Assembly (NCBI GenBank): GCA_035275805.1
Contig: DATEMG010000282.1
Coordinates: 1 to 51,309, forward strand
Reading direction: 5' to 3'
DNA from: Blastocatellia bacterium
GTDB lineage: Bacteria > Acidobacteriota > Blastocatellia > RBC074
Length of the DNA stretch: 51,309 bases
Positions 4,764-51,309 of this stretch are shown piece after piece; position 1 is the stretch's first letter, and every line of letters begins with the position of its first letter. The translations under genes and the position numbers were made by a program. The notes beneath the pieces were generated by a model. That model made no database searches. It was not told where the DNA came from and saw only the letters and a list, made by a program, of their open reading frames with translations.

Positions 4764-4780
4764 TATAATCCTGTGCATTT

Positions 4781-5515
4781 TTAGCGCTTCTTCGCTGCCT
4801 TCTTTGCGGGTTTCTTAGCGGCTTTCTTAGCAGCCTTGGCGGCCTTCTTGGCCGGCGCTTTTTTAGCAGCCTTCTTAGCCGGTCTGCTCGCGACTTTCTT
4901 GGCGGCTTTCTTAGCCGGTTTCGCAGCCTTCTTTGCGGGCTTGGCGGCCTTCTTCGCAGCCTTCTTTGCGGGCTTGGCGGCCTTCTTGGCCGGCTTAGCG
5001 GCCTTCTTTGCGGGCTTGGCAGCCTTCTTTGCGGGCTTGGCGGCCTTCTTTGCGGGCTTGGCGGCCTTCTTGGCCCGTTTCTTCGCGGGTTTTGCGGCCG
5101 GAGGTTGGACTGCCGGCGCGGTCGGCGCGGGCGCGGGCGCGGGCTCGGGCGCGAAAGGCACGGGCTCGGGCGCGACGCTGGAAACTACTGGCGCGATCCC
5201 TACTTCCTCTTCTTCTTCCTCTTCCTCTTCCTCGCGAATAGTCCAGGCGGGGCGCTCCTCGCCTAATACTTCATCGTCTTCTTCAATGTCCATATCGTCT
5301 TCGTCCTTCAGGTAATCTTCCTCTTCGTCATCGAGGTCTTTTTTACGGCGGTATTCATCATCGTAGTTCCATGAATCGCGGTCGTCGTCGTCGAACTGAA
5401 GTGAATAGCCTCGCGGCTCGCCGTCCCGTTCTCCGCCAGCGATGTATTCGTCTGGCGGGGAAAATTCATCTGCTTCGTGTTTCTCCGGGGTGTTCATGTC
5501 GTCAGTCTTTACCAT
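4781..5515 (-). CDS. Charge-segregated protein: acidic N-terminal half, Pro/Ala linker, histone-H1-like (KKAAKPA)n C-terminal tail
   Basis: 244-aa ORF. Residues 1-105 are D/E-rich, including an E10 run. A PAPEP linker follows, then about 100 aa of AKKAAKPAKK repeats. AAGGAGAA SD upstream of the ATG. The antisense ORF 4836..5315 is its low-complexity mirror. Confidence 0.7.
   Translation of the reverse strand: MVKTDDMNTPEKHEADEFSPPDEYIAGGERDGEPRGYSLQFDDDDRDSWNYDDEYRRKKDLDDEEEDYLKDEDDMDIEEDDEVLGEERPAWTIREEEEEEEEEEVGIAPVVSSVAPEPVPFAPEPAPAPAPTAPAVQPPAAKPAKKRAKKAAKPAKKAAKPAKKAAKPAKKAAKPAKKAAKPAKKAAKKAAKPAKKAAKPAKKAAKKVASRPAKKAAKKAPAKKAAKAAKKAAKKPAKKAAKKR
4784..5101 (-). repeat. In-frame Lys/Ala/Pro tandem repeat (AAKPAKK units)
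   Basis: Repeated GGCTTGGCGGCCTTCTT(T/G)GC(G/C)GG blocks on the plus strand. They translate on the minus strand to (KKAAKPA)n. Confidence 0.9.
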
Positions 5516-9231: not shown

Positions 9232-10326
9232 ATGCGAAAAACAACGCGACGCGACATTCTGCGGGGCGGCCTCGCCGCTACCCCATTCGCCTTTATCAAT
9301 GAACTGGAATTCGCCATGAGTTTGAATCCTCTTGTCCAAAATGAACGCGGCTCGATCACTGACGTCGTCGGAATCAAAGTCGGCCACTTCACCGATTCAC
9401 GCCGTCCGACCGGCTGCACAGTGATCCTGTGCGAGGAGGGCGCGGTCGGGGGAGTCGATGTCCGCGGCGCGGCTCCCGGCACGCGCGAGACCGATCTGCT
9501 CGACCCAATCAACACTGTCCAGCAAGTTCACGCGGTTGTTCTGTCGGGCGGCAGCGCGTTCGGACTCGACACGGCGACCGGAGTGATGCGCTACCTGGAA
9601 GAGCATGGGATCGGATTCGACACGCGGGTTGCGCGCGTGCCGATTGTTCCGGCGGCGATCCTCTTCGACCTTGGAGTCGGCGATCCGAAAATTCGGCCCG
9701 ACGCCGAAGCGGGCTACAGAGCCTGTAAGGCCGCGACGGCGGACGGCGCCGCCGAAGGCAACGTCGGCGCCGGCGCGGGCGCGACCGTGGGTAAACTCTT
9801 CGGGATGGATCGCGCCATGAAGGGCGGGCTCGGAGCCGCTTCGATCAAGCTAAGCGACGGAAAATCGAGTTTGACCGTGGGCGCCATTGTGGCCGTCAAC
9901 GCCGTCGGCGACGTGATCGATCCGGGCGCGGGCAAAGTCATCGCGGGCGCGCGCACGAAGGATGGCAAGGCGCTGCTCGGATCGATGAACGCAATCCTTC
10001 GCGGCGAACCCCTGCCGCCTTTGCTCGGAGGCTCGGCGACGACAATCGGCGCGGTCGCGACCGATGCAAGACTCGACAAAGCCCAGGCGACGAAGGTCGC
10101 TCAGATGGCCCACGACGGATTGGCGCGCACGATCAATCCCGTTCACACGCCGGCGGACGGCGACACGATCTTCGCCCTCGCTACCGGCAAATCATCGCGG
10201 CAACCGAACGTGGCCTTGATCGGGGCGCTCGCGGCGGAGGCGATGGCTCAAGCGGTAGTGAGGGCGGTGAAAGCGGCGAAGGGAATTTCGGGATTGCCGA
10301 GCGTGGCGGAGATGAAGACGGCGTAA
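9232..10326 (+). CDS. P1-family (DmpA/S58-like) aminopeptidase, Tat-type signal
   Basis: RRDILRGG twin-arginine leader. GIKVGHFTD, GCTVIL and GVDVRGAAPGTRETDLL resemble the DmpA/L-aminopeptidase family. Confidence 0.75.
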   Translation: MRKTTRRDILRGGLAATPFAFINELEFAMSLNPLVQNERGSITDVVGIKVGHFTDSRRPTGCTVILCEEGAVGGVDVRGAAPGTRETDLLDPINTVQQVHAVVLSGGSAFGLDTATGVMRYLEEHGIGFDTRVARVPIVPAAILFDLGVGDPKIRPDAEAGYRACKAATADGAAEGNVGAGAGATVGKLFGMDRAMKGGLGAASIKLSDGKSSLTVGAIVAVNAVGDVIDPGAGKVIAGARTKDGKALLGSMNAILRGEPLPPLLGGSATTIGAVATDARLDKAQATKVAQMAHDGLARTINPVHTPADGDTIFALATGKSSRQPNVALIGALAAEAMAQAVVRAVKAAKGISGLPSVAEMKTA

Positions 10327-10513: not shown

Positions 10514-12535
10514 ATGAAGATGAAAATGAATCATCCACATCATTTGTTAGGAACGTTGGCGTTGGTGGCGCTCGCGTTCTTTAATGCACAGGCCGGCGTC
10601 ACCCGCATAGATATCATCTCCCGCGCCGACCTGCTCAACGGCAAGGAGTTTGGGCTGGCGGGCGCTTACGAGAAGATCGTCGCCAAAGTCCACTTCGCCG
10701 TCGACCCGAACAATCCGCACAATAAGGTCATAGTCGATATCGACAAGGCGCCGCGCAACGAGCAGGGCCTGGTCGAATTCTCCGCCGATCTCTACATCCT
10801 CAGGCCGAAGGATTTGAATCGTGGCGCCGGCGCCGCGCTGTTCGAGATTCCGAACCGAGGCGGCAAGGCTATGGTTCGCTTCTTCAATCATGCGCGCGGC
10901 TCGGCCGACCCGACGACCGAGGCTGAGATGGGCGACGGATTTTTGATGCGGCGCGGCTTTACGCTGGTCTGGCTGGGCTGGCAGTTCGACGTGGCTGACG
11001 GCGAGCAATCGTTGCGGCTCTATGCGCCTGTGGCGACCGACAACGGCAAGCCCATAACCGGTTGGGTAAGATCGGATTTCGTCTTTGCCACGAAGGTCTT
11101 CGACGCCTCACTCGGTCATCGCGGCCAGAAGGCGCAACCCGCGATCGAGCCTGACAGCGCCGAGTACAAGTTGACGGTACGCGACGCGGTGTTGGGCGAG
11201 CGACGTGTGATTCCGCGAGGCGACTGGCGTTTCGCGCGCTTCGTCGACGGGCAAGCCGTTCCCGACCCGACCCGCATCTATGTCAAGGGTGGATTCGAGC
11301 CAGGCAAGATTTACGAGGTCGTTTATCGCGTCCAGAATCCGGCGGTCGTGGGATTGGGCCTTGCGGCGACGCGCGACCTGGCGTCGTATTTCAAATACGA
11401 GCGCAACGACATGGCGTCGGTCAAACGCGCTTTGGCTTTCGGCATCTCGCAATCGGGCCGCTACCTTCGCCATTTCGTCTATCAAGGCTTCAACGCCGAC
11501 GAAAAAGACAGGCAGGTCTTCGACGCCGTCAACCCGCACGTCGCCGGCGGAGGGCATGGCAGCTTCAATCATCGCTTCGCCGAGCCGTCCCGCGACGCCA
11601 GCCCATTTTCGACATTCTTCTACCCGACCGACATCTTCCCGTTCGCCGATCTGGAGCAGACTGACCCTGAGACGGGCGAGAAAGACGGCATTCTGGGGCT
11701 GGCGATCAAACAGAAGGTCGCGCCGAAAATCTTCTACACGTTTTCGTCCTATGAATATTGGGGGCGCGCGGCGTCGTTGATTCACACTGGCCTCGACGGC
11801 AAAGCGGACGCGCCGCTGCCGGAGAACGTGCGCGTCTACTATTTCGTAGGCGGTCAGCATGGGCCGGGTCAATTCCCGCCGAACAAAAATCAGACGCAGA
11901 ACCTGGCCAGCCCGAACGACTATTCATGGTCGATGCGAGCCCTGCTCGTCGCGCTGGACGCATGGGTGAAAGACGGAACGCAACCGCCGCCGAGCCGGTA
12001 CGCCAAAATCGCCGACGGATCGCTCGTCAGCCCGCAGGCGATCAAATTCCCGAAAATCCCCGGCGTCAATTTCCCTCGCACGATTCACGAAGCCTGGCGC
12101 GTCGATTACGGCTCGGGATTCAAAACAAAAGGCGTCGTCACAAATGAACCGCCGCGCATCGGCAAGCCGTTTTCGGTGATGGCGCCGCAGGTCGATCAGG
12201 ACGGCATCGACATCGGCGGAATCAAAATGCCAGAAGTCGCCGCGCCATTGGCGACTTATACCGGTTGGAACCCCCGCGACCCGCAGACTGGCGCGCCTGA
12301 TCAGTTGGTAGACTTCGCCGGTTCATACATTCCCTTCGCAAAGACAAAGTCCGAGCGCGACCGCACGGGCGATCCGCGATTGTCGCTGGAAGAACGATAT
12401 ACGAGCCGAGCCCACTACCTCGGCCTGGTGGCGGAAGCGGGATTGAAACTGGTCAAAGACGGCTACCTGTTGGCTGAAGACTTGCCGGCATTAGTCGAAC
12501 GCGCCGGGCGGCAGTGGGACTACACAGTGAAGTGA
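10514..12535 (+). CDS. Secreted protein, probable alpha/beta-hydrolase-domain protein
   Basis: 673 aa with an N-terminal signal peptide. GISQSGRYLRHF resembles a GxSxG nucleophile elbow. Family assignment is from memory only. Confidence 0.5.
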   Translation: MKMKMNHPHHLLGTLALVALAFFNAQAGVTRIDIISRADLLNGKEFGLAGAYEKIVAKVHFAVDPNNPHNKVIVDIDKAPRNEQGLVEFSADLYILRPKDLNRGAGAALFEIPNRGGKAMVRFFNHARGSADPTTEAEMGDGFLMRRGFTLVWLGWQFDVADGEQSLRLYAPVATDNGKPITGWVRSDFVFATKVFDASLGHRGQKAQPAIEPDSAEYKLTVRDAVLGERRVIPRGDWRFARFVDGQAVPDPTRIYVKGGFEPGKIYEVVYRVQNPAVVGLGLAATRDLASYFKYERNDMASVKRALAFGISQSGRYLRHFVYQGFNADEKDRQVFDAVNPHVAGGGHGSFNHRFAEPSRDASPFSTFFYPTDIFPFADLEQTDPETGEKDGILGLAIKQKVAPKIFYTFSSYEYWGRAASLIHTGLDGKADAPLPENVRVYYFVGGQHGPGQFPPNKNQTQNLASPNDYSWSMRALLVALDAWVKDGTQPPPSRYAKIADGSLVSPQAIKFPKIPGVNFPRTIHEAWRVDYGSGFKTKGVVTNEPPRIGKPFSVMAPQVDQDGIDIGGIKMPEVAAPLATYTGWNPRDPQTGAPDQLVDFAGSYIPFAKTKSERDRTGDPRLSLEERYTSRAHYLGLVAEAGLKLVKDGYLLAEDLPALVERAGRQWDYTVK

Positions 12536-12558
12536 AGCCAGGAATGCCGAGTGTAGTA

Positions 12559-12641: not shown

Positions 12642-12876
12642 TCCAGAAGCAATTCCATTTAGACCTGAGTTTATACTATATGGTATGCGGGCGAAGCCGC
12701 TGGTCCTTTCTCCAAAATTCACCGCGAAATCGTATATCATTTAGGAAGAATAATTTCTGCTCGCCATCGAGATGCGAATCCGTGTGGTACGCCGGTCGCA
12801 ATACATGTCCGGCGAAAGGAGACCTCGGCACAGTTGCACTCACGCATTCTGATAGACACTCCGGGGAACTAACTAA

Positions 12877-13251
12877 ATGAACATTCAAAATATAAAGAAG
12901 TACGCATTCTCGTTGGCTCTTGCAGTAGGCTTTGTTATCGCTCCTGGTCTATCGAGTCTGTCCACCGTTCAGGCGCAGGGATGGGGCCGTGACCGCCGGG
13001 ATGACCGCTGGGATGACCGGAGACGGGATCGTTGGGACGACGACCGCTGGGACGATCGTCGGGAACGCAGGGAGGAATATAGAGGCTATCGCGACGGATT
13101 GGACAGAGGGCAGAGAGACGCTCGCACGAACAGGCGTCCCGACCCCAATAACTCCAGCCATTATCGTAACGGCAACCATGATTATCGAGAAGGATTTCGC
13201 AGGGGTTATTTTCGGAGCTACCGTGAATATGACCGCTACGGGAGGCGGTAA
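12877..13251 (+). CDS. Secreted Arg/Asp/Trp-rich low-complexity protein
   Basis: Signal peptide ending VQAQG, then DRRDDRWDDRRRDRWDDDRWDDRRERRE and a YR/GY-rich tail. A strong intrinsic terminator follows. Confidence 0.55.
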   Translation: MNIQNIKKYAFSLALAVGFVIAPGLSSLSTVQAQGWGRDRRDDRWDDRRRDRWDDDRWDDRRERREEYRGYRDGLDRGQRDARTNRRPDPNNSSHYRNGNHDYREGFRRGYFRSYREYDRYGRR

Positions 13252-18435: not shown

Positions 18436-18517
18436 GAAAGCTTTAGCTTTTCTTCATAGCGTTTTTTCCAAATCTTTTCAGGCCCCCTCCATTCTAATTT
18501 TCGACCCCTGACTTATT

Positions 18518-18640
18518 GAGAGACGGGGCGACGAGGCGACAGGGCGACGGGGCGAAAAGGAGAATGGGGGAGAAAGCAACGCTACTTTCTCCCGTTCTCT
18601 TCATCGCCCCGTCGCGTGAGTCGCCTCGTCGCCCCGTCTC
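18518..18640. repeat. GGCGAC-unit hairpin element (family copy 1)
   Basis: The G-rich arm 18518-18555 pairs with the C-rich arm 18604-18640. The loop starts AAGGAGAATGGGGGAGAAAGC. Confidence 0.9.
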
Positions 18641-21489: not shown

Positions 21490-21969
21490 ATGAACAAGGA
21501 GAAAAAAAGCTCTATGCTTTGGGTAATGTTCGCCATCGGCGCTGCCCTCTCGTGGGGAGTTTACGGCGCGATGTTGCATCAGGGACAGGTCAAGCTCGGC
21601 AGCCCGGTTCGCTCGCTGCTTTGCGTTGGCGTCGCGTACTTTTTGATCGGCGTCATCGTACCGGTCGCCATGCTCTACTCGCAGGGGCAGTTGACCGTCC
21701 AGGGGTGGAACGCCTTCGGGGCGACGACGGCGACGGGCGCCGGCGCGCTCGGCGCGGTCGGCGCGGTCTGCATCATCCTGGCTTTCAAGAGCGGCGGCCT
21801 GCCGACTTACGTAATGCCGCTGGTGTTCGGCGGCGCGCCGGTGATCAACGTGTTGGTCACGATGGTGCTTCACCCGCCGAAGACCGCGCCGAACCCGCTG
21901 CTCTTCCTTGGGTTCCTGCTGGTCGTGCTGGGCGCGAGCATGGTTCTCTATTTCAGACCGCAGTCCTAA
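21490..21969 (+). CDS. Small integral membrane protein (4-5 TM)
   Basis: 159 aa and hydrophobic throughout. No family recognised. Confidence 0.6.
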   Translation: MNKEKKSSMLWVMFAIGAALSWGVYGAMLHQGQVKLGSPVRSLLCVGVAYFLIGVIVPVAMLYSQGQLTVQGWNAFGATTATGAGALGAVGAVCIILAFKSGGLPTYVMPLVFGGAPVINVLVTMVLHPPKTAPNPLLFLGFLLVVLGASMVLYFRPQS

Positions 21970-22080
21970 TCAGTACCGCGAGCGGTAGCGAGCGTGGCCG
22001 AATCAGCCGACGCATTGATGAAATCACGCTCGTTACCGCTCGCGGTACTGATTACGCTCGTTATCACTCGCGGTGCTGAT
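21968..22080. repeat. ATCAGTACCGCGAGCGGTAGCGAGCG hairpin element (family copy 1, extra half-arm)
   Basis: 21968-21996 pairs with 22025-22053 (one mismatch). A further degenerate right-arm copy lies at 22054-22080. The element starts inside the stop codon of the upstream gene. Confidence 0.9.
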
Positions 22081-24523: not shown

Positions 24524-24611
24524 GTTCGTAGTCCCGCCTTTAGGCGGAAGAGTTTGGTAGCACGGGATAGATTTACATCTGACCTTTCCGCCTAAAGGCG
24601 GGACTACGAAC
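24524..24611. repeat. GTAGTCCCGCCTTTAGGCGGAA hairpin element (family copy 1)
   Basis: 24524-24549 is the exact reverse complement of 24586-24611 (26 bp). Confidence 0.9.
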
Positions 24612-24636
24612 AGATTTTCCGAGGAGCGTCAACTTA

Positions 24637-34566: not shown

Positions 34567-34590
34567 AAAATCTCCTCCGAAAATGGGTTT

Positions 34591-34676
34591 GTAGTCCCGC
34601 CTTTAGGCGGAAGGCCAAGCTATAAATCACATTCTGAGGCGCCAAAGGCTTCCGCCTAAAGGCGGGACTACGAACC
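34591..34676. repeat. GTAGTCCCGCCTTTAGGCGGAA hairpin element (family copy 2)
   Basis: 34591-34613 is the exact reverse complement of 34649-34671. It lies between the zinc-ribbon gene and glmS on the same transcript strand. Confidence 0.9.
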
Positions 34677-40276: not shown

Positions 40277-41395
40277 ATGGAGAGCGAGTTCACCGGCGCG
40301 GACGCGAAGACGAGGAGGCGCCGCAGAGTCTTTTTCACGACGGCGCTTCTTCTTGCCGCCGGGGCTTTCATATTGGGGTCGCTTCAATCGGCCTTCAGCC
40401 AAAGCGGACGCGGCCCGCAGCCCGATCCGAAGGAGCGGAAGACTGACAAGCGCAAAAATCCGGGCCCTGCGCCGAAAATCCGCCTGCCCGAAAACCCTCC
40501 AGAACCAAAGGGGAAAGACGGCGAGGACATAATTCGCATCAACAGCGACCTGATCAACGTCGTCGTGACCGTCGGCGGTCTTCCGCCGAGCGCCTCGCTC
40601 GATCTGAAGCCGGAAGATTTCGAAATCCTCGAAGACGGCGCGCTGCAGGAGATCGCCAACTTCTCCCGTAACGCCGACCAGCCGCTGAAGATGGTCATGC
40701 TTTTCGACACCAGTTACAGCGTCGCCCAGCGGCTCAATTTCGAGCGCCGGGCCGCCGCGCGTTTCTTCGAGCGCGTGATCCGCCCGCAGGACCGCGCCGC
40801 CGTATTTTCGGTCTCTACCGACGTGGCCGTTTTGCAGGAGTTCACCAACAAGGTCCCGCTCCTGGTGGACGCCACGCGGCAGCTCAAGGCGCAGGGCGCG
40901 ACCTCGCTTTACGACGCCATTTACCTGGCGGCCGACTATCTCAAGCCCGCTGAAGGCCGCCGCGTGATCGTCATCGTTTCGGACGGCGGCGACACCACCA
41001 GCAGCAAGGGATTGCTCGAATCCATAGCCCAGGCGCAAAAATCCGACTCGGTCATTTTCGCCATCTTCACGGGCAGCCCGTGGCCTTCCGAGAACCTTCG
41101 CGACCTGGCCGCTGAACGCGCTCTCGAATCGTTGACCAAAGAGACCGGCGGCGAATTGTTCAAACCCAGGCTCCCGGACGGGAGGCGGCCTGGCGATGAA
41201 TCCGATGAGGCGTCGCTAAAAGAACTCGACCGCGCCTTCGCCGATCTCGCCGACCGGTTGCGCACCCAATACGTCCTCGGGTTCTTCTCGACCAACGAAA
41301 AACGCGACGGCTCTTTCCGCAAACTTGACGTCCGAATCAAAAAGACCAACTACGTCGCGCGCGCCAGAGTAGGGTATTACGCGCCTAAGGAGTGA
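40277..41395 (+). CDS. VWA-domain protein with acidobacterial-type N-terminal beta-sandwich (paralogue of 16912..18141)
   Basis: Signal/TM, IRINSDLINVVVTV...LKPEDFEILEDGALQEIANF, MIDAS MLFDTSYS. The C-terminal YVLGFFSTNEKRDGSFRKLDVRIK matches YTLTYISTNERRDGNYRTIAVGV of the paralogue. Confidence 0.8.
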   Translation: MESEFTGADAKTRRRRRVFFTTALLLAAGAFILGSLQSAFSQSGRGPQPDPKERKTDKRKNPGPAPKIRLPENPPEPKGKDGEDIIRINSDLINVVVTVGGLPPSASLDLKPEDFEILEDGALQEIANFSRNADQPLKMVMLFDTSYSVAQRLNFERRAAARFFERVIRPQDRAAVFSVSTDVAVLQEFTNKVPLLVDATRQLKAQGATSLYDAIYLAADYLKPAEGRRVIVIVSDGGDTTSSKGLLESIAQAQKSDSVIFAIFTGSPWPSENLRDLAAERALESLTKETGGELFKPRLPDGRRPGDESDEASLKELDRAFADLADRLRTQYVLGFFSTNEKRDGSFRKLDVRIKKTNYVARARVGYYAPKE

Positions 41396-41401
41396 GGAGG
41401 T

Positions 41402-41489
41402 GACGGGGCGACAAGGCGACGGGGCGACAAGGCGACGAGGAGAATGGGACAGAAAGCGCCCCCTGTCGCCCCGTCGCCTTGTCGCCCCG
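41402..41489. repeat. GGCGAC-unit hairpin element (family copy 2)
   Basis: The G-rich arm 41402-41440 pairs with the C-rich arm 41464-41489. The loop GGAGAATGGGACAGAAAGC is shared with copy 1. The element starts 7 nt after the VWA gene stop. Confidence 0.9.
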
Positions 41490-41529
41490 CCTCTTTCTCC
41501 CCGGCGCTCTCCCACTCTTCGAAAGCTCG

Positions 41530-42784: not shown

Positions 42785-42876
42785 CCAGTGGACAGTGGAC
42801 AGTGGACAGTAGAGAGTGATTAGCGCTTTGCTGCCCACTGCCCACTGCCCACTGCCCACTGCCCACTGCCCACTGC
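42785..42876. repeat. Hairpin element with (CAGTGGA)n versus (CCCACTG)n arms
   Basis: Left arm of 3-4 heptamers, right arm of 5 heptamers. Complementary except one position per heptamer. It fills the yacL-like/ispD gap and ends 3 nt before the ispD ATG. Confidence 0.9.
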
Positions 42877-42879
42877 TTT

Positions 42880-44121: not shown

Positions 44122-44826
44122 ATGTTCGACGTAATCGCATTCGACGCCGATGATACGCTGTGGCACAACGAGCCGATCTATCGCGGCGCGCAGAGTCAGG
44201 TCCTCGACATCATGGCGCATTATCACGACCGTGATTGGATAGAGCGCCGTATGTACGAGACCGAAATCCGCAACCTCGAACATTACGGTTACGGCATCAA
44301 AGGCTTCACGCTCTCGATGATCGAAACGGCGATCGAATTGACCGAAGGACGCATCAGCGGCGCCGAGATAGGCCGAGTCATCGAATTGACCCGCGAGATG
44401 TTTAAAGCCCCGGTCGAACTCCTCGACGGCGTCGAAGAGACGATCGCGACGCTCGCCGCCTCGCACGACCTGATGCTGATCACCAAAGGCGATCTTTTCG
44501 AGCAGCAGGCCAAGATCGCGCGTTCGGGGCTGGCCGACCATTTTGGCAAGATCGAAATCGTCCCGGTCAAAATCAGAGAGACCTACCAATCTATCGTCAC
44601 CAGGCACGAGATCATCCCTCATCGCTTCCTGATGGTCGGCAATTCGATCAGGTCGGACGTCCTGCCCGTGATCGAGATGGGCGGCCATGCTGTTCACATT
44701 CCTTACGAGACCACCTGGGAGCACGAAATCGTGCCTGAAGAGGAACTCGCGGGCAGGGAATTCATCAGGCTCGCTCACATCCGCGAGCTTCCGGCATTGA
44801 TATATGCGACCACAAGATCTGATTGA
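44122..44826 (+). CDS. HAD-superfamily hydrolase
   Basis: Motif I FDADDTLW (DxDxT), ITKG, VGNSIRSD. Confidence 0.8.
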   Translation: MFDVIAFDADDTLWHNEPIYRGAQSQVLDIMAHYHDRDWIERRMYETEIRNLEHYGYGIKGFTLSMIETAIELTEGRISGAEIGRVIELTREMFKAPVELLDGVEETIATLAASHDLMLITKGDLFEQQAKIARSGLADHFGKIEIVPVKIRETYQSIVTRHEIIPHRFLMVGNSIRSDVLPVIEMGGHAVHIPYETTWEHEIVPEEELAGREFIRLAHIRELPALIYATTRSD

Positions 44827-46105
44827 AAAAAAACGGGACCGCAAGGAGTTGACGCGCGACGAGATCGCATTCCTGATCCGCGGCTACACGCGCGACGAGA
44901 TCCCCGATTACCAGATGGCCGCGTGGCTGATGGCCGCTTTCCTGAACGGGATGAGCGAGGCCGAAACGCGGGCGCTGGTCGAAGAGATGCTCCAGTCCGG
45001 CGTCACGCTCACGCACGATCATGTGGCCGAGCCGAAAGTCGACAAACATTCGACCGGCGGCGTCGGAGACAAGACCAGCCTGGTCATCGCGCCCGTGGCC
45101 GCCGCGTGCGGCGTCGCCGTGCCGATGATCTCGGGCCGCGCGCTGGCCCACACCGGCGGCACGCTAGATAAACTCGAAGCCATCCCGGGATTCCGAACCG
45201 GCCTCTCGCTCGACGAATTCCGCGACGTGTTGAAGCGTTGCGGCCTCGCGCTGATCGGCCAGACGAAAGAGGTCGCGCCCGCCGACCGAAAGCTCTACGC
45301 CTTGCGCGACCTGACCGCAACCGTCCCGTTCCGCCCATTCATTTGCGCTTCGGTCATGTCGAAGAAATTGGCCGAGGGGATTGACGGGCTCGTGCTCGAT
45401 GTGAAGACTGGCAACGGCGCGTTCATGCGCGAATTCGAAGACTCGCGCAAGCTGGCCGAGATGATGGCCTCGACGGGCCGCGCGATGGGGAAACGCGTCG
45501 TCGCGCTGATCACCGACATGGACCAGCCGCTGGGCCGTTGGGTCGGCAATGCGGTTGAGACGATGGAAGCGATCGAAACGCTGCGAGGCGACCTCGAAGG
45601 CGATTTCGCCGAGTTGTGTTTGGAACTGGCCGCGCGGATGCTGATCGTCGGCGGAGTCGAGAGCGACCTGGAAATCGCCCGCGACCGCTCGCGCGACGCT
45701 ATCACTTCGGGCCGGGCGCTGGAACGTTTCCGCGCCTGCGTCGAGGCGCAAGGCGGCGACCCGCGCGTCCTCGACGACACGGCGCTCCTGCCGCAGGCGG
45801 ACAAACAACGCGCGATCACCGCCGGCCGCGCGGGCTTCGTCAACGGCATTGAGACCGACGAGATCGGCCGCGTCGTGATGGATTGGGGCGGAGGGCGGCG
45901 AAGGCTTGAAGACAAGATCGATTACTCCGTCGGCCTGCGCCTTCACGCCAAGATCGGCGACCATGTGAACGCGGGCGACCCACTCGCTATTGCTTATTAC
46001 AACGACGAATCGAAATTTGAAGAGATGGGCGCCCGGCTGCGAGCGGCCTATAGGATTGGAGGATCGGCTCCGAAATCCGAACCCCTGATCAAAGCGGTAA
46101 TCTAG
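44804..46105 (+). CDS. deoA: Thymidine / pyrimidine-nucleoside phosphorylase
   Basis: KHSTGGVGDKTSL and SGRALAHTGGTLDKLE motifs. Overlaps the HAD gene by 23 nt. Confidence 0.92.
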   Translation: MRPQDLIEKKRDRKELTRDEIAFLIRGYTRDEIPDYQMAAWLMAAFLNGMSEAETRALVEEMLQSGVTLTHDHVAEPKVDKHSTGGVGDKTSLVIAPVAAACGVAVPMISGRALAHTGGTLDKLEAIPGFRTGLSLDEFRDVLKRCGLALIGQTKEVAPADRKLYALRDLTATVPFRPFICASVMSKKLAEGIDGLVLDVKTGNGAFMREFEDSRKLAEMMASTGRAMGKRVVALITDMDQPLGRWVGNAVETMEAIETLRGDLEGDFAELCLELAARMLIVGGVESDLEIARDRSRDAITSGRALERFRACVEAQGGDPRVLDDTALLPQADKQRAITAGRAGFVNGIETDEIGRVVMDWGGGRRRLEDKIDYSVGLRLHAKIGDHVNAGDPLAIAYYNDESKFEEMGARLRAAYRIGGSAPKSEPLIKAVI

Positions 46106-46149: not shown

Positions 46150-46219
46150 AATCAGTACCGCGAGCGGTAGCGAGCGGGCTTCACGCTGAGACGCGCTCGC
46201 TACCGCTCGCGGTACTGAT
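46150..46219. repeat. ATCAGTACCGCGAGCGGTAGCGAGCG hairpin element (family copy 2)
   Basis: 46151-46176 is the exact reverse complement of 46194-46219 (26 bp). It lies between convergent deoA and the STAND gene. Confidence 0.9.
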
Positions 46220-46368
46220 CCAGTAAGCCTTTCAAGAATCGCAAACACCTTCTCAACTCGTCATTCAAAACCGCCGGATACTTTTCGATCTCCTGCGTAG
46301 TCATAACTCGTCCGAATCGCCGCCTCCATTTTATACTTCAGAATCGTGTTCCTGCACTGCTCCCAGAC

Positions 46369-49300
46369 TCATGGCTCTTTGTCGAAATAGCGCAGCTTGT
46401 GCTTGACCTTCTCCACCGCCGCGCGCGCCGCTTCTTTTACCTCATCCGACTCATCGGTCGCCGCAAGTCGCTCTAACTCAGTCAGGCAAGGCTCCTTGAC
46501 GTAATAGCCTACCACCTCCGCCGCCTTGCGCCGGACGGAATTCTTCTTATCGTCCAGAGCTAGCATCAATCCCGCCGCGAAATTTTCGGCCTTATCAGCG
46601 GCTATGCTGCCCAGCGCAGATGCCGCGCGCCCTCGAACATCAGACTCCTGAGCCTCAAGCAGAGCTTTGAGCAAAGCGTCCACGGCTCGCTCCGAACCGA
46701 TGCTGCCCAGCGCCTCTGCCGCGTCCCCTCGAACATAAAACTCCTGATCTTCGAGCAGAGCTTTGAGCAAAGCGTCCACGGCTTGCTCCGAACCGATGCT
46801 GCCCAGCGCCTCTGCCGCGCGCCATCGAACATCAGACTTCTGATCTTCGAGCAGAGCTTTGAGCAAAGCGTCCACGGCTCGCTCCGAACCGATGCTGCCC
46901 AGCGCCTCTGCCGCGTTCCCTCGAACATAAGACTTCTGATCTTCAAGCAGGGCTTTGAGCAAAGCGTCCACGGCCCGCTCCGAACCGATGCTACCCAGCG
47001 CCTCTGCCGCGCGCCATCGAACAGAAGGCTCCTGAGCTTCGAGCAGAGCTTTGAGCAAAGCGTCCACGGCCCGCTCCGAACCGATGCTGCCCAGCGCCTC
47101 TGCCGCACTCCCTCGAACACCAGACTCCTGAGTTTCGAGCAGGGCTTTGAATAAAGCGTCCACGGCTCGCTCCGAACCGATGCTGCCCAGCGCCTCTGCC
47201 GCGCGCCCTCGAACATAAGACTCCTGATCTTCGAGCAGGGCTTTGAGCAAAGCGTCCACGGCCCGCTCCGAACCGATGCTGCCCAGCGCCTCTGCCGCGC
47301 GCCCTCGAACAGAAGAATCGTTGGCGCTGTCCAGACGTGCGGCGACGCCGAGCGCGACGGGGTCGAGCGCTTCCCCTCGCGCTTGAGCGAATGCCCGGAC
47401 GACGGAGTGGAAATAAGGCGTCGCTTCGGGTTTCGCGGAGGTGATGAAATCATCGAGACGCTGGAGCATCTTTTGCAGCGTTTGCGGTTTTACCTTTGCC
47501 GAGGCCAGGCCGCGAGCGCGAAGCCGCAGCAGTTTGTGATCGAGCGATTCGGGCAATTGCTCCAGCGTTTCGTACATGCGGTCGGGATTGCGAACAATGC
47601 TCAGCGCCATCGGCAGCGTCTCCATCTCGACCAGCAGAGGATGGAAACAGGCGCGGACGAAGACGCTTTCGCAATCGGCATGGGCAGCCAAAGCTTTAGC
47701 GGCCAGGTATTCCTGCAAGGTCAGGTGCGAAAAAGACCAGACGTTTTCGGCCACTTCGCGCACCATCGGCGTGGCCGTCACATCGGCGGCCAGAGTGAAC
47801 GCTTCCCGAGCGTCCCGGCAAAAGCGCCGCGCCGAGGCTTCGATGAAATCGGTGGTGAAGGCGACACGCTCAGCCTCTTTGCCCTGTTCGACGCCGTCGT
47901 CGAAAAGACGATCGAACGCCAGTTGATTGAGGAAAGCCAGCTTCAGACGGCCATCGTGATCGTCAAGCCTGAATCGTTCGACATTCTTCTGGCTGTCGAT
48001 CCTCGCGGCCAGGTCAGCGACAATGCCTTCGTAAAGTTTCAGCCGGTCAGTTTCGACTTTACCACTTAGACGGATACGCCGCACGATGGCGCTAATCAGC
48101 GTCGGCACGCTGACCAGATCGCTCAGGTCGGGGCTCACCAACTTGGGCAAAAGCTTTCGGCCTTCATCCTTGCCGAAGTAATGATCGAGGAAAAGCGCGA
48201 TCTGGTCGCGGTTGAACGGGGCGATCTCCATCTCTTCAGCCTTGCCGAACCGGCGGTCGCGTAACGCGAAAGGCCGCGACGAGATGATCATCAGGTTATT
48301 GCCGTGATCTTCGACAAAACGATTGATCGAATCGCAGAGATGAGAGAAATGCTTCTCCCATCCGCGGACTTCATCCAATCCGTCGAGTAACGCGACGATC
48401 TCGCCCGATTCGAGCCGCCGCGCAAATTCGTCCCGCAACCGTTCACGCCCTGCTCCGTTCGCGTCCGGCTTCTTCAACAATTCCGTGGCGGCGTGGTCGA
48501 ACAAGACGGATTCGAGCCTGACATCGGCGCCATTGAACGATTCCTTGTTGAGTCCTTTCATCTCGACGAAGATCGGAATGCGTTTCGGATCGTTGTCGCA
48601 GACCTGCAGCGCCAGCCATCGCATCAACGTCGTTTTGCCGCATCCTGGAGCGCCCGCAATCACCGCAGGCTCCCGGCGTTTCAACAGGTCTTCAGGCTTG
48701 ATCCGGCGTTGGGCTTCCCGGTCTTTGCGAGGCCGGGAACCGAAAGCAGCGTAGCGGGCGCGTAACTCGGAGTCCCACATCCCCATCCATTCATCGTTGG
48801 CGGTCGGGCGGCTGTAACTCTCGTTGATGGACAATTCGACGAAGACCCGTTTCAGTTCATGGGCTTCAGTTTCGCCGAGCAGCGTTATCTTGCCGTACTT
48901 TTTCCTGATCTGATCGCGGTAAGCTGTGAGCAGGTTTTCGATTGATTGCGCCGAAGCTGTCTGCGCCGAGTCATTCCGTAAAGCGGCGGGCGAACCGAGT
49001 TTGAATTTGTCGCGGATGAAGTTGGTCAGGTGATTGCGGACTATGTCTTCGAAATCCTTTTCATCGTTGTAACCCCACCACAATCCTTTGGCGGGGAATT
49101 TCTCTTTGAACCCCAGCACTTGCACCCACTGTTCGCCCTCGCTCTTCGATTGCGGGTAGTAGGGTTTTTGGCTGAAGTAGACGAAAATTTGCGGGCTGCG
49201 TTTCTCGTTCCAGGCGCAGATGGCTAGATTGATCTCGTGCTCGGTTCCGGTCTGGCCGTCGGCGGTCGGCGTGCCGAATTTTTTCCAGAAAATTCCGATC

Positions 49301-49530
49301 AGCAGGTCGCAGTCCGTGATTTTTATGATCGGATCAATCAGACCTTGCGGGCCTTCGGGGTGAAATCCGGGATACGCGTCTGTTTCCCAGCGCGACAACA
49401 CGAGGCTCAGCCCGCGGTCGGCGGCGACGCCGCGATTCAATTCCTCGATCACATTCGGCAATAGATCACGTTCGGCTTTCACATCACTGGGCGATGCGAC
49501 TACGATTCTGAGGTCTCGCTTTTGCACCAT
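46369..49530 (-). CDS. STAND NTPase: TIR-like/DUF4062-like N-terminal domain, NACHT P-loop module, C-terminal HEAT-type repeats
   Basis: The N-terminal domain reads IVVASPSDVKAERD...CDLLIGIFWKKFGTPT...GTEHEI...IFVYF. Walker A is IAGAPGCGKTTL and Walker B is VALLDGLDEV. Nine units of VRxxAAEALGSIGSERAVDALLKALL follow. Start set at the ATG at 49530, preceded by AGGAG at 8 nt. Confidence 0.85.
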   Translation of the reverse strand: MVQKRDLRIVVASPSDVKAERDLLPNVIEELNRGVAADRGLSLVLSRWETDAYPGFHPEGPQGLIDPIIKITDCDLLIGIFWKKFGTPTADGQTGTEHEINLAICAWNEKRSPQIFVYFSQKPYYPQSKSEGEQWVQVLGFKEKFPAKGLWWGYNDEKDFEDIVRNHLTNFIRDKFKLGSPAALRNDSAQTASAQSIENLLTAYRDQIRKKYGKITLLGETEAHELKRVFVELSINESYSRPTANDEWMGMWDSELRARYAAFGSRPRKDREAQRRIKPEDLLKRREPAVIAGAPGCGKTTLMRWLALQVCDNDPKRIPIFVEMKGLNKESFNGADVRLESVLFDHAATELLKKPDANGAGRERLRDEFARRLESGEIVALLDGLDEVRGWEKHFSHLCDSINRFVEDHGNNLMIISSRPFALRDRRFGKAEEMEIAPFNRDQIALFLDHYFGKDEGRKLLPKLVSPDLSDLVSVPTLISAIVRRIRLSGKVETDRLKLYEGIVADLAARIDSQKNVERFRLDDHDGRLKLAFLNQLAFDRLFDDGVEQGKEAERVAFTTDFIEASARRFCRDAREAFTLAADVTATPMVREVAENVWSFSHLTLQEYLAAKALAAHADCESVFVRACFHPLLVEMETLPMALSIVRNPDRMYETLEQLPESLDHKLLRLRARGLASAKVKPQTLQKMLQRLDDFITSAKPEATPYFHSVVRAFAQARGEALDPVALGVAARLDSANDSSVRGRAAEALGSIGSERAVDALLKALLEDQESYVRGRAAEALGSIGSERAVDALFKALLETQESGVRGSAAEALGSIGSERAVDALLKALLEAQEPSVRWRAAEALGSIGSERAVDALLKALLEDQKSYVRGNAAEALGSIGSERAVDALLKALLEDQKSDVRWRAAEALGSIGSEQAVDALLKALLEDQEFYVRGDAAEALGSIGSERAVDALLKALLEAQESDVRGRAASALGSIAADKAENFAAGLMLALDDKKNSVRRKAAEVVGYYVKEPCLTELERLAATDESDEVKEAARAAVEKVKHKLRYFDKEP
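46639..47310 (-). repeat. Seven near-identical 96-bp tandem repeats (32-aa HEAT-type units) inside the STAND gene
   Basis: The ATGCTGCCCAGCGC landmark recurs at 46700, 46796, 46892, 46988, 47084, 47180 and 47276 (exact 96-nt period). Two degenerate units follow toward 46440. Confidence 0.95.
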
Positions 49531-49714
49531 AAGCAAAACTCCTGATTGGCCTGAATCAATGCGTCGCAATAGTGCGACATTCACGGCGAATGTTTCAAGG
49601 TTTTCTTTGGCGGTTGCCCGTGGGGAATCGAGTGGGCGATAATCGCCGCGCCCACAAAAAAGGCGCGCCCCTTGCGCCTGGTCCGGTGAAAGAAAGTCTC
49701 ATCAAAGAAAGTCA

Positions 49715-50731
49715 ATGAACATAAGACGTATTGATCTCTGGGTTCTGTTGATTTGTTGTTCGCTGCCGTTTGGCGGCTGCGCCACGCGCGAATTCGTCGC
49801 CGAGGCCGACGCGGGGAAAAAGAAGGTCGGCATCGTTTTCGACATCGGTGGCAAGGACGACCGTTCGTTTAACGCCGCCGCAAACACGGGCGTAGTGCGC
49901 GCGAAAAAAGATTTCCCGATCGTCCTGCGCGACGTTGAGCCTGGCGACCCGACTTCGATCGAGCCGGCGCTGCGAGTTTTCGCGCAATACGGCTACAACC
50001 TTATTACCGGTGTGGGATTCGCCCAGGGGCCGATCCTGAGAGAAGTGGCGAAGGATTACCCTCAGCTACATTTCGTGCTGATTGACTCTGTGGCCGATTC
50101 GCCGAACGTAGCCAGCCTGGTGTTCAGAGAGCACGAAGGGTCGTTCCTGGTCGGGATGATTGCGGCTTACGCCTCGAGGACCGGCGCGATCGGCTTCGTC
50201 GGCGGGATGGACATCCCGCTGATCCACAGGTTCAAGACCGGGTACGAGGAGGGCGCGCATTACGTCAATCCGAACATCAGAGTCATGCACAATTATGTCG
50301 GCATCACCGACGCGGCCTGGAACAACCCGGGCAAAGGGCGCGAACTGGCCAACGCGCAGTACGAGCAGGGCGCGGACGTGATCTTCCAGGCTGCCGGCAA
50401 TTCGGGGCTGGGCGTCTTCGACGCCGCCGAGGCTTACGACAAATTCGCCATCGGGGTCGACGCCAACCAGAACTGGGTCAAGCCCGGTCACGTCCTGACC
50501 AGCATGCTCAAACGGATCGACAACGCCGTTTACAGCATCGTCAAAGACGAGGTCGAGGGGAAATTCAAGGGCGGCGTTCATGTTTACGGCCTGGAGAACG
50601 ATGGCATCGGCTACGCGATTGACGAATACAACAGACATCTGATCCCATCTATAGTGATTGAAAAGGTCGAACAGGCTCGTCTCGACATCATCGCGGGCAA
50701 GATCAAAGTGACCGATGCAATGGCGAAGTGA
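49715..50731 (+). CDS. BMP-family (PnrA/Med-like) ABC-transporter substrate-binding lipoprotein
   Basis: Lipobox LPFGGC, VGIVFDIGGKDDRSFN, GVDANQ. Confidence 0.88.
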   Translation: MNIRRIDLWVLLICCSLPFGGCATREFVAEADAGKKKVGIVFDIGGKDDRSFNAAANTGVVRAKKDFPIVLRDVEPGDPTSIEPALRVFAQYGYNLITGVGFAQGPILREVAKDYPQLHFVLIDSVADSPNVASLVFREHEGSFLVGMIAAYASRTGAIGFVGGMDIPLIHRFKTGYEEGAHYVNPNIRVMHNYVGITDAAWNNPGKGRELANAQYEQGADVIFQAAGNSGLGVFDAAEAYDKFAIGVDANQNWVKPGHVLTSMLKRIDNAVYSIVKDEVEGKFKGGVHVYGLENDGIGYAIDEYNRHLIPSIVIEKVEQARLDIIAGKIKVTDAMAK

Positions 50732-50732
50732 A

Positions 50733-50769
50733 GCGACAGGGCGACAGGGCGACGGGGCGACGGGGCGAG
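50733..50769. repeat. GGCGAC-unit G-rich arm (family copy 3, left part)
   Basis: GCGACAGGGCGACAGGGCGACGGGGCGACGGGGCGAG, starting 2 nt after the BMP gene stop. Confidence 0.85.
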
Positions 50770-50813
50770 AAAATCCAGGTTGGACTGAAAAATATGACAG
50801 AGTAGGCGCCCGC

Positions 50814-51188
50814 ATGGAAAAGATCAAAGGTTACAAAGATCTTCGCGTTTATCAGGCTGCTATTGATGCAGCCATGTCAATCTTTACTCTGACGAAACAT
50901 TTCCCGCCCGAGGAGAAATACTCGATGGTTGACCAGATGCGTCGCTCGTCTCGCTCTGTTTGCGCCAAGATCGCTGAAGCTTGGCGCAAACGGCGATATC
51001 CCGCACATTTTGTCAGCAAGTTGAGCGATTCGGAAAGTGAAGCGGAAGAGACAAGGGTTTGGATCGAACTCGCGCATCGTTGTGGCTATCTGAAGAAGGA
51101 GAGGGCCGATGAACTTGATGACTGTTATGACAAGATCCTCGGACAGCTTGTTCTGATGATTAACGCTCCAGAGAAATGGACTCTGTGA
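50814..51188 (+). CDS. Four-helix-bundle protein (23S rRNA intervening-sequence protein / Avd-like family)
   Basis: YKDLRVYQAAIDAAMSIFTLTKHFPPEEKYSMVDQMRRSSRSVCAKIAEAWRKR...E is the family hallmark. Start set at MEKIKGY; the upstream part of the track ORF translates a repeat arm. Confidence 0.8.
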   Translation: MEKIKGYKDLRVYQAAIDAAMSIFTLTKHFPPEEKYSMVDQMRRSSRSVCAKIAEAWRKRRYPAHFVSKLSDSESEAEETRVWIELAHRCGYLKKERADELDDCYDKILGQLVLMINAPEKWTL

Positions 51189-51212
51189 CTTGAAGACTGA
51201 AAATGAAAATCT

Positions 51213-51260
51213 GGCGATGTGGCGACCGGGCGACCGGGTGATTTGGCGACTGGGCGAGGG
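51213..51260. repeat. GGCGAC-unit G-rich arm (family copy 3, right part, same orientation)
   Basis: GGCGATGTGGCGACCGGGCGACCGGGTGATTTGGCGACTGGGCGAGGGG. Any C-rich partner arm would lie beyond the window end. Confidence 0.8.
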
Positions 51261-51309
51261 GAGAAGGCGAAACGAGGGTAGGCAAGAATGAAAGCAAAAA
51301 TCTTCTTGT

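Follow-up and report, generated by a model that had tools for sequence, protein, structure and literature searches.

What is a solitary minus-strand gene for a large protein doing between a thymidine phosphorylase gene and the gene of a nucleoside-binding lipoprotein, both of which are read in the other direction? The question is raised by a 51,309-nt stretch of DNA (positions 1 to 51,309 of contig DATEMG010000282.1, assembly GCA_035275805.1; the whole stretch is referred to here as the window) from an uncultured Blastocatellia (Acidobacteriota) soil bacterium. The gene encodes a protein of 1053 amino acids (aa), here termed the NLR-like protein, in which a TIR-like DUF4062/NIR head is followed by a NACHT nucleotide-binding module and a C-terminal array of HEAT repeats, a three-part architecture that is as good as certain. 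The answer argued for below is that this protein is probably a single-polypeptide NLR-type switch against phages, which would hydrolyze NAD+ in an infected cell and thereby act as a suicide device. Its modules have each been characterized elsewhere, and the NIR-NACHT-HEAT protein recombines them. The parts of the gene are the following, with the basis of each call in brackets.

46369..49530, minus strand: coding sequence of the NLR-like protein, 1053 aa from ATG, stop codon at 46369-46371 (list of open reading frames, ORFs)
49539..49543, minus strand: AGGAG of Shine-Dalgarno type, lying 8 nt upstream of the start codon (ATG, 49530; read from the sequence)
49006..49518, minus strand: DUF4062/NIR (TIR-like) putative effector domain, residues 5-175 (Pfam at family level, PADLOC PDC-S60, AlphaFold2 model)
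49234..49245, minus strand: T96-E97-H98-E99, putative catalytic motif (alignments A1 and A2; opens model helix 96-110)
48676..49005, minus strand: linker with the helical segment that precedes NACHT, residues 176-285 (contains the head-swap breakpoint)
48166..48675, minus strand: NACHT nucleotide-binding domain, residues ~286-455 (Pfam NACHT; model strands)
48628..48654, minus strand: Walker A GAPGCGKTT, residues 293-301 (motif position; conservation)
48367..48390, minus strand: Walker B LLDGLDEV, residues 381-388 (contains the NACHT signature D383-G-L-D-E387)
47326..48165, minus strand: helical and winged-helix domains, then the helical spine, residues ~456-735 (model; beta-hairpin 590-600; NLR-like matches)
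46639..47310, minus strand: seven near-identical 32-aa (96-nt) HEAT/alphaRep-type units, residues 741-964 (repeat family D1, period 96)
46384..46638, minus strand: a pair of degenerate HEAT units, then the helix that caps the C terminus, residues 965-1049 (unit table; model)

The reading frame runs without interruption through 1053 codons (3.2 kb). Its ATG at 49530 is favored over an upstream GTG at 49584 because, in the alignment, homologues begin at the same MxQxRILRIVVASP as the NLR-like protein; a scan of the locus for promoter and terminator consensus sequences gave counts at chance level. The full-length AlphaFold2 (AF2) model (mean pLDDT 80.2, pTM 0.62) opens at the N terminus with the head and a disordered linker; the P-loop domain comes next, then the helical and winged-helix domains and a spine of helices, and a long solenoid closes the chain. 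Foldseek matches the model to NLRC4 (4kxf), NLRP3 and NOD2 over 860-1050 aligned columns (E 7e-9 to 1e-7), with global TM-scores that are low (0.22-0.31), as is expected for multi-domain proteins in differing conformations. A three-part protein of this length had been proposed in a preliminary description made from the sequence alone, and all three of its domain calls hold; the motifs that it quoted are found at residues 95 (GTEHEI), 293 (GAPGCGKTT) and 381 (LLDGLDEV).

The assignment of the head to DUF4062, part of the same description, is borne out by the relatives of the domain. The single sequence lies below the Pfam cut-off, yet PF13271 (DUF4062) is the sole family matched in each of the 31 members of alignment A1 (relatives of the N-terminal domain at 49-70% identity) when these are scanned singly (best E 4.3e-8), and the PADLOC model PDC-S60 matches residues 6-212 with E 6.5e-33. 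A profile search with the domain retrieved 647 relatives; most of the 120 listed (52-86% identity) come with a precomputed PF13271 assignment, and several relatives carry the NCBI or JGI name 'DUF4062 domain-containing protein'. The PDC-S60 match covers only profile positions 4-207 of 906, that is, the DUF4062 head, and PADLOC returned no full-length PDC-S60 match; a second PADLOC model matches around the P-loop (E 1.6e-4). The PDC systems of PADLOC are 'guilt-by-embedding' candidates without experimental test. The AF2 model of the N-terminal domain (pLDDT 79.5) consists of five beta-alpha units, with strands at residues 5-13, 41-49, 76-81, 114-120 and 151-154 and helices at 15-33, 65-69, 96-110, 129-144 and 157-175, and a beta-alpha topology of five strands and five helices has likewise been reported for KpSwz, a DUF4062 protein, from its structure by cryo-EM (2026 preprint). 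As judged from alignments and model, the head is best placed as a divergent branch of DUF4062. Within it, the 29-31 aligned homologues all keep E99, and at least 90% of them keep E97 (alignments A1 and A2); the residue after E99 is isoleucine in the NLR-like protein and phenylalanine in most relatives. Both glutamates are numbered close to the published catalytic residues of DUF4062 proteins, located in an 'E-Y region' (E97 in KpSwz, E98 in Vulcan, E103 in VstA, E108 in PsAvs2), and either of the two may be the catalytic one.

By its profile match, motifs and modeled fold, the central module is a STAND NTPase of the NACHT clade, related to the bacterial NLRs. Pfam NACHT (PF05729) matches residues 289-454 over profile positions 3-166 of 167, with a score of 40.4 bits where the cut-off is 26.7 (E 3.5e-10), a weak NPHP3_N match lies on the same module, and the model has strands at 289-292, 318-323, 378-383, 413-418 and 432-436. 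Across 29 full-length homologues, G293, P295, G296, G298, K299 and T301 of Walker A are invariant and D383-G-L-D-E387 of Walker B is conserved; according to Kibby et al. (10.1101/2022.07.19.500537), the signature D[GAS]hDE sets NACHT apart from other STAND clades. A phmmer search with the NACHT region against the PDB gave no match, and the NLRs named above were found by fold comparison only.

The C-terminal repeats match HEAT_2 with 281 bits and HEAT_PBS with 143 bits in Pfam and form a solenoid that is modeled at pLDDT 88-95. The seven regular units are 87-90% identical to one another at the nucleotide level; 24 of the 32 unit positions are invariant in amino acid across all seven, and the changes cluster at positions 3, 4, 28, 30, 31 and 32. 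Unit number differs between three orthologous arrays, with seven units in the window, two at locus L001 and at least ten at locus L002 (loci and proteins of relatives are designated here by L and P), and the arrays of L001 and L002 vary at the same unit positions as that of the window and also at positions 7 and 11. The window array aligns with engineered alphaRep chains at 43-53% identity (E 1e-104 to 1e-35). AlphaReps are binders designed from the natural repeat family to which the window array belongs, with randomized binding positions 18, 19, 22, 23, 26 and 30 (PMC3754942); they share with the window array the motif …AVxALxxALxDxDxxVRxxAAxALGxIG and have coinciding variable positions (Urvoas/Guellouz et al.), and they differ from it in being engineered 31-aa repeats without signaling domains, whereas the window units are of 32 aa and are carried by an NLR body. 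In the alignment, the six randomized positions correspond to unit positions 31, 32, 3, 4, 7 and 11. On these fall 29 of the 46 extra amino-acid types counted over the three arrays together, a number reached by 3 of 100000 random six-position sets, and as the arrays are related, this figure gives an indication and not an exact probability. Since the variable positions map to the randomized ones, the natural variation sits on the binding face known from alphaRep crystal structures, and it would predict where the ligand of the NLR-like protein binds. At L002, the array of the orthologue has a stop followed by a change of frame at 12751-12945, and the gene is called as two pieces of 948 aa and 285 aa; the break is either a recent pseudogenization or an indel error of long-read assembly. 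Diversification of the repeats by a diversity-generating retroelement was considered on account of a bAvd-like 23S-rRNA-intervening-sequence protein (IVP) gene 1.2 kb away, and was rejected on three grounds: no reverse transcriptase is in view, the variable codons have no adenine-specific pattern, and IVP genes occur as dispersed cassettes in these genomes.

What such a combination of modules would do is suggested by recent work on the head. In three 2026 preprints, DUF4062 is established as the TIR-like effector that degrades NAD+ in the anti-phage systems PsAvs2, Vulcan, Vesta, Swarozyc and Evangelion, and NAD+ depletion with abortive infection is for this reason the likeliest mechanism; the NAD+-directed effector that the preliminary description had guessed at agrees with these reports by analogy. 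PsAvs2 (DUF4062-STAND-TPR) of Pseudomonas chlororaphis is triggered by terminase, needs E108, and leads to abortive infection by converting NAD+ to ADP-ribose (ADPR) and nicotinamide; a phage pathway that reconstitutes NAD counters it. Vulcan of Enterobacter roggenkampii, a direct DUF4062-HEAT fusion, needs E98 (both in Le Mouellic et al., 10.64898/2026.09.04.749371). Swarozyc is activated by portal protein and has E97 as its catalytic residue (2026 preprint), and genome-wide 20% of DUF4062 genes lie near defense genes, against 3.9% expected (2026 preprint). Bacterial NACHT proteins had earlier been described by Kibby et al. (10.1101/2022.07.19.500537) as joining NAD-targeting heads (TIR, SIR2, 'DrHyd') to HEAT sensors of 'antigen-receptor type'. 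By analogy with these systems, an ADP-bound NACHT module would in the resting state keep the NLR-like protein monomeric and its NIR domain inactive, and the surface of the alphaRep-like HEAT solenoid would bind either a protein of the phage or one of the host that infection has altered. Ligand binding would lift autoinhibition, upon which the NACHT module would swap its nucleotide and oligomerize; oligomerization would cluster the NIR heads, the clustered heads would hydrolyze NAD+, and the loss of NAD+ would arrest or kill the infected cell ahead of phage release. Ligand, oligomerization, substrate and phenotype are thus proposed by likeness to other proteins, and the full chain is considered moderately probable.

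The same architecture could serve in conflict through another chemistry, either hydrolysis of nucleotides or nucleosides (as by a CMP- or dNMP-type N-glycosidase, a 'deoxyribohydrolase') or a NAD-derived signal to a distant effector. Such an output is rather unlikely, given that ADPR and nicotinamide are what every DUF4062 domain tested so far makes of NAD+ (PsAvs2, Vulcan, VstA, KpSwz, Eva01 and human TEP1), that the window has no candidate for a downstream effector next to the gene, and that exchange within the locus for TIR, a known NADase, suggests an equivalent output. It draws some plausibility from the related 'DrHyd' head, called NAD-targeting by prediction only in Kibby et al. (10.1101/2022.07.19.500537), from the divergence of this NIR subfamily, which is enough to miss the Pfam threshold, and from a Metallophos gene behind TIR-bearing orthologues whose product could process a nucleotide product.

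Among characterized systems, PsAvs2 resembles the NLR-like protein in having an N-terminal NIR domain, a central STAND NTPase and a C-terminal helical-repeat sensor in one polypeptide, and differs from it in having an NTPase of the Avs2 clade and TPR repeats, where the NLR-like protein has a NACHT-clade DGLDE NTPase and a HEAT/alphaRep array. The NLR-like protein would be Avs-like in its working; by sequence it falls outside the Avs families sensu Gao et al., and no Avs family model is among its PADLOC or NCBIfam matches. Vulcan likewise joins a NIR head to a HEAT sensor in a single gene, and its E98 compares with E97/E99, but it is without an NTPase switch, whereas the NLR-like protein has ~500 residues of NACHT, helical and winged-helix domains between head and repeats. 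The bNACHT proteins (10.1101/2022.07.19.500537) share the D[GAS]hDE NACHT signature, NAD-targeting heads and HEAT-type sensors; none of those tested, as far as the available text of Kibby et al. goes, combines a NIR head with a HEAT sensor. The eukaryotic proteins TEP1, NWD1, NWD2 and NPHP3 have DUF4062 directly N-terminal to a NACHT ATPase, as in the NLR-like protein, and the DUF4062 domain of TEP1 is an active NADase; these proteins differ in their WD40, TPR or TROVE C-terminal parts and in having roles in eukaryotic cell biology. If the proposed function is correct, the newly characterized DUF4062/NIR NADase effector extends to a NACHT+HEAT chassis and to the Acidobacteriota, for which there are almost no experimental phage-defense data. 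Current understanding would not be overturned by it, the protein being a well-behaved example of modular NLR-like immunity.

Several results weigh against an anti-phage NADase. Scanned as a single sequence, the head matches PF13271 at residues 10-103 with only ~19 bits (cut-off 24.7; E 1.5e-3), a sub-threshold match that spans profile positions 3-82 of 82, with no other Pfam family matching the N-terminus. The preliminary description had likened the head to TIR and also to nucleoside 2-deoxyribosyltransferase (NDT) proteins, and this likeness was not specifically recovered by fold comparison: a Foldseek search of the N-terminal model against the PDB has no TIR or NDT entry in its top 50, and the top matches are generic flavodoxin-like folds (WrbA, lumazine synthase) at TM 0.3-0.45. 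When PDB sequences were searched with the N-terminus, by sequence and by profile, only cholesterol oxidase and NTR2 came up, at E >0.04, and KpSwz was not detected; the putative catalytic loop is modeled at low confidence. Neither PADLOC nor the NCBIfam defense models gave a full-length match to the NLR-like protein, EruA, the closest antiphage NACHT model of NCBIfam, reaching 59.6 bits against a cut-off of 1000. PADLOC found no match in ten other large ORFs of the window, and the locus is hence not a classical defense island; its flanks are housekeeping genes. Protein P0001 is identical to the NLR-like protein except for exactly four units fewer and one substitution, a difference that may be a real polymorphism or an assembly collapse. 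In the literature no functional test of the exact NIR-NACHT-HEAT combination was found; to this extent the remark in the preliminary description that no functional work was known stands, while for the effector domain it has been overtaken by the work of 2026.

Whether the gene belongs to its neighbors or has intruded upon them can be decided from related genomes. The features that surround it are the following.

44804..46105, plus strand: thymidine phosphorylase (deoA), left border (Pfam of the L001 orthologue; synteny)
46151..46219, no strand: 69-nt palindrome of REP type, lying where deoA and the NLR-like gene converge (inverted repeat I9)
46200..46304, minus strand: 34-aa ORF, small-gene remnant (longer in L001, as 38-aa and 107-aa ORFs)
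49715..50731, plus strand: Bmp/PnrA-like nucleoside-binding lipoprotein, right border (Pfam Bmp E 2.1e-63; synteny)

The synteny sample comprised 80 loci with deoA homologues, and in ~25 Blastocatellia genomes related to that of the window bmp comes directly after deoA, with a gap of 5-400 bp, wherever both genes are in view (L004, for example, has a deoA that is 91% identical and a gap of 185 bp). Since relatives keep the two genes contiguous, the NACHT-HEAT gene is an insertion that splits an ancestral deoA-bmp pair. The preliminary description had spoken of a gene wedged in and of the only minus-strand gene, and both statements agree with these data, the second for the interval between 41.6 and 51.3 kb. 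A NACHT-HEAT gene occupies the same site in one sub-lineage only, namely at L001 (deoA 97% identical; orthologue P0002, 91% identical), L002/L003 (deoA 91%), L083/L084 and L085, and at L055 only the last 107 codons are kept as a 3' remnant. A housekeeping gene, with a place at this locus in all relatives and slowly evolving repeats, is not what is seen: the gene is absent from most of them, survives as a remnant at L055, and has repeats that vary. In other lineages the site is filled by unrelated insertions (a SEC-C protein, 976-aa and 543-aa ORFs, PIN, DUF5678), and around the NACHT-HEAT gene of the orthologous loci the set of small genes changes (CcbP-like, Metallophos, PIN, DUF5678, SEC-C, PDDEXK_3). 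The deoA-bmp site is a small hotspot of accessory genes in these relatives.

A functional tie to nucleoside salvage, for instance as a regulated nucleosidase that feeds DeoA and the Bmp transporter, was rejected on this synteny and can be given hardly any weight. The location of the gene, with thymidine phosphorylase on one side and a PnrA-like nucleoside-binding protein on the other, invites it, as does the relationship of the DUF4062 superfamily to nucleoside 2-deoxyribosyltransferases; set against these are the strand of the gene, opposite to that of its neighbors, its absence from the ~25 relatives with adjacent deoA and bmp, the unrelated insertions at the same site elsewhere, and the sister genomes that carry a TIR head instead of NIR.

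The preliminary description had called the gene lone and without a partner, which is correct for the window genome, where neither the six kinds of small gene listed above nor any partner gene is found, and incorrect for relatives, whose orthologous loci carry extra neighbors. The 34-aa ORF of the window is probably non-functional debris of such an island. The small ORFs of L001 were considered as a nucleotidyltransferase-type toxin-antitoxin pair, had no match in Pfam, and are left unnamed. At L002, a CcbP-like (PF11535) gene of 224 aa (9264-9938) lies on the same strand 62 nt upstream of the TIR-NACHT-HEAT gene, and its C-terminal motif PLCDLEAT..KSKNYQ.L.DYVVW.ANR persists as a fragment (~12453-12540) beside the NLR remnant of L055. 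At L083 (4608-5273) and L085 (10583-11248), a 221-aa calcineurin-like phosphoesterase (Metallophos) gene follows directly after the TIR-bearing orthologue, in an overlapping or adjacent frame, and the two may form a two-gene unit.

Erosion of this kind raises the question of whether the NLR-like gene is itself decaying or silent, a relic of an island under loss. The window island is eroded, with the 34-aa remnant and the REP element in place of the neighbors present at L001, the L055 copy is a 3' fragment, and the L002 orthologue has a stop and frameshift in its repeats. The gene of the window, on the other hand, has an uninterrupted ORF with intact putative catalytic and NTPase motifs and a Shine-Dalgarno-like sequence, and the framework positions of its repeats have a pN/pS of ~0.27, a value that is descriptive only, as the position set was chosen post hoc and has one index off (27 for 28). 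Decay is accordingly very improbable.

Some of the orthologues carry another head; in close ones at the same locus, it sits on a NACHT-HEAT body that is 87-90% identical. Proteins P0006 (L002/L003), P0007 (L085) and P0010 (L083) have a TIR_2 head of ~150 aa in place of the ~200-aa NIR and are 74-88% identical to the NLR-like protein over the NACHT-HEAT body. Their loci share the deoA-proximal site as well as the body, and differ in the head and in the accompanying CcbP-like, Metallophos, PIN and DUF5678 genes. In a blastn comparison with L002, 90% nucleotide homology extends from the repeats to window nt 48921 and stops there, and the protein alignment with the TIR orthologue resumes at LLTAYRDQIRKKYG, which places the swap breakpoint at about residues 199-204. 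The TIR copy retains the usual C-x-x-E-L glutamate (here C-Q-Q-E-L). In a neighbor-joining (NJ) tree of NACHT modules, which carries no support values, TIR- and NIR-bearing proteins are interleaved within a clade of at least 71% identity, and on this basis more than one head swap is likely to have occurred. More distant relatives of the NACHT-HEAT chassis have SIR2 or PF14280 heads. For the NIR head, the closer resemblance is to domains at the C termini of LRR-Roc-COR proteins (70-76% identity, in more than 50 proteins); the heads of NIR-NACHT-HEAT paralogues reach only 48-60%. The head therefore moves between scaffolds.

The LRR-Roc-COR (ROCO-type GTPase) proteins in question, from Blastocatellia and Pyrinomonadaceae (among P0058-P0119), end in DUF4062/NIR (in P0063, residues 665-836 of 838); ROCO-NIR fusions are not mentioned in the main text of the one DUF4062 preprint that was searched for them. 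Protein P0040 has two tandem DUF4062/NIR domains, and P0079 and P0114 (NB-ARC/NACHT with HEAT) have a C-terminal one.

A tentative history of the locus, plausible but short of probable, is that the deoA-bmp interval is a long-lived hotspot in which a fixed NACHT-HEAT body has had its array re-tuned and its head exchanged two or more times, NIR replacing TIR and TIR replacing NIR. The exchange may have taken place at the fixed linker breakpoint, with a NIR donor closest to the LRR-Roc-COR heads, and the array may have changed by gain and loss of units together with substitutions confined to the binding surface. If this is true, a bacterial NLR evolves by repeat shuffling and head swapping, which is the logic of fungal and plant NLR evolution, and nature would offer evidence that NIR and TIR can stand in for each other as outputs. 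The locus is in effect a natural experiment, in which a single receptor body, always at this chromosomal site, bears either a TIR or a NIR head; the heads are therefore argued to be interchangeable, and the linker is marked as the place for chimeras.

The same observations bear on a STAND switch without an immune role, linked to death or dormancy in stress or development, or to kin discrimination, with a HEAT array that senses an endogenous ligand; proteins of this sort are expanded in complex soil bacteria. Such a role would suit the large paralogous NIR-NACHT-HEAT family (40-48% identity) that extends across Blastocatellia and Pyrinomonadaceae, the occurrence of the NIR head on the LRR-Roc-COR proteins, which suggests a broad signaling toolkit, the want of a surrounding defense island, and the eukaryotic DUF4062-NACHT proteins TEP1 and NWD1, which are not classical immune receptors. 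It is nonetheless unlikely, as polymorphism in presence and absence, the remnant, head swapping and hypervariability on the repeat surface are signatures of antagonistic co-evolution, and DUF4062 genes are enriched near defense genes at the frequency given above. The anti-phage NADase switch is therefore preferred.

The palindrome at 46151-46219 has ~33-nt arms and the core ATCAGTACCGCGAGCGGTAGCGAGCG; with a second copy at 21967-22054, the window holds four arms, where chance would give 0. Further copies occur at L001 (3943-4022, 14991-15130), L002 (68-147, 5669-5734, 16185-16250), L003, L009 and L012, in intergenic regions and at sites that differ between genomes. The multi-copy hairpin that the preliminary description had noted at the 3' side of the gene is therefore real, but it is a dispersed element and not tied to the NLR-like gene. 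A second REP-like hairpin family occurs at 24524-24626 and 34572-34676, 10 kb apart, as GTTCGTAGTCCCGCCTTTAGGCGGAAG with its complement ~36 nt away.

To the right of bmp lies the bAvd-like/IVP gene, encoding a four-helix protein (ORF 50814-51188, plus strand; Pfam 8e-31) and having GGCGACNG octamer arrays on either side (50715-50776 and 51204-51265). The region 50715-51265 looks like a small inserted cassette, since L001 has bmp and then an ABC-transporter gene directly; a comparable IVP gene is located elsewhere in L002. Similar hairpin-forming octamer arrays are found at 18510-18615 and 41374-41502, and the window in general is rich in short tandem heptamer or octamer arrays and hairpins. 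These include CTGCCCA, present three times at the start of ispD (42831-42879), CAGATGT arrays (region 120-247) that give a perfect 27-nt inverted repeat at 122-247, and GATCCTC arrays (12600-12638/26673-26725). A longer periodic repeat of 9/12/21 nt extends over 4778-5110, and its reverse strand would read as codons rich in Lys, Ala and Pro.

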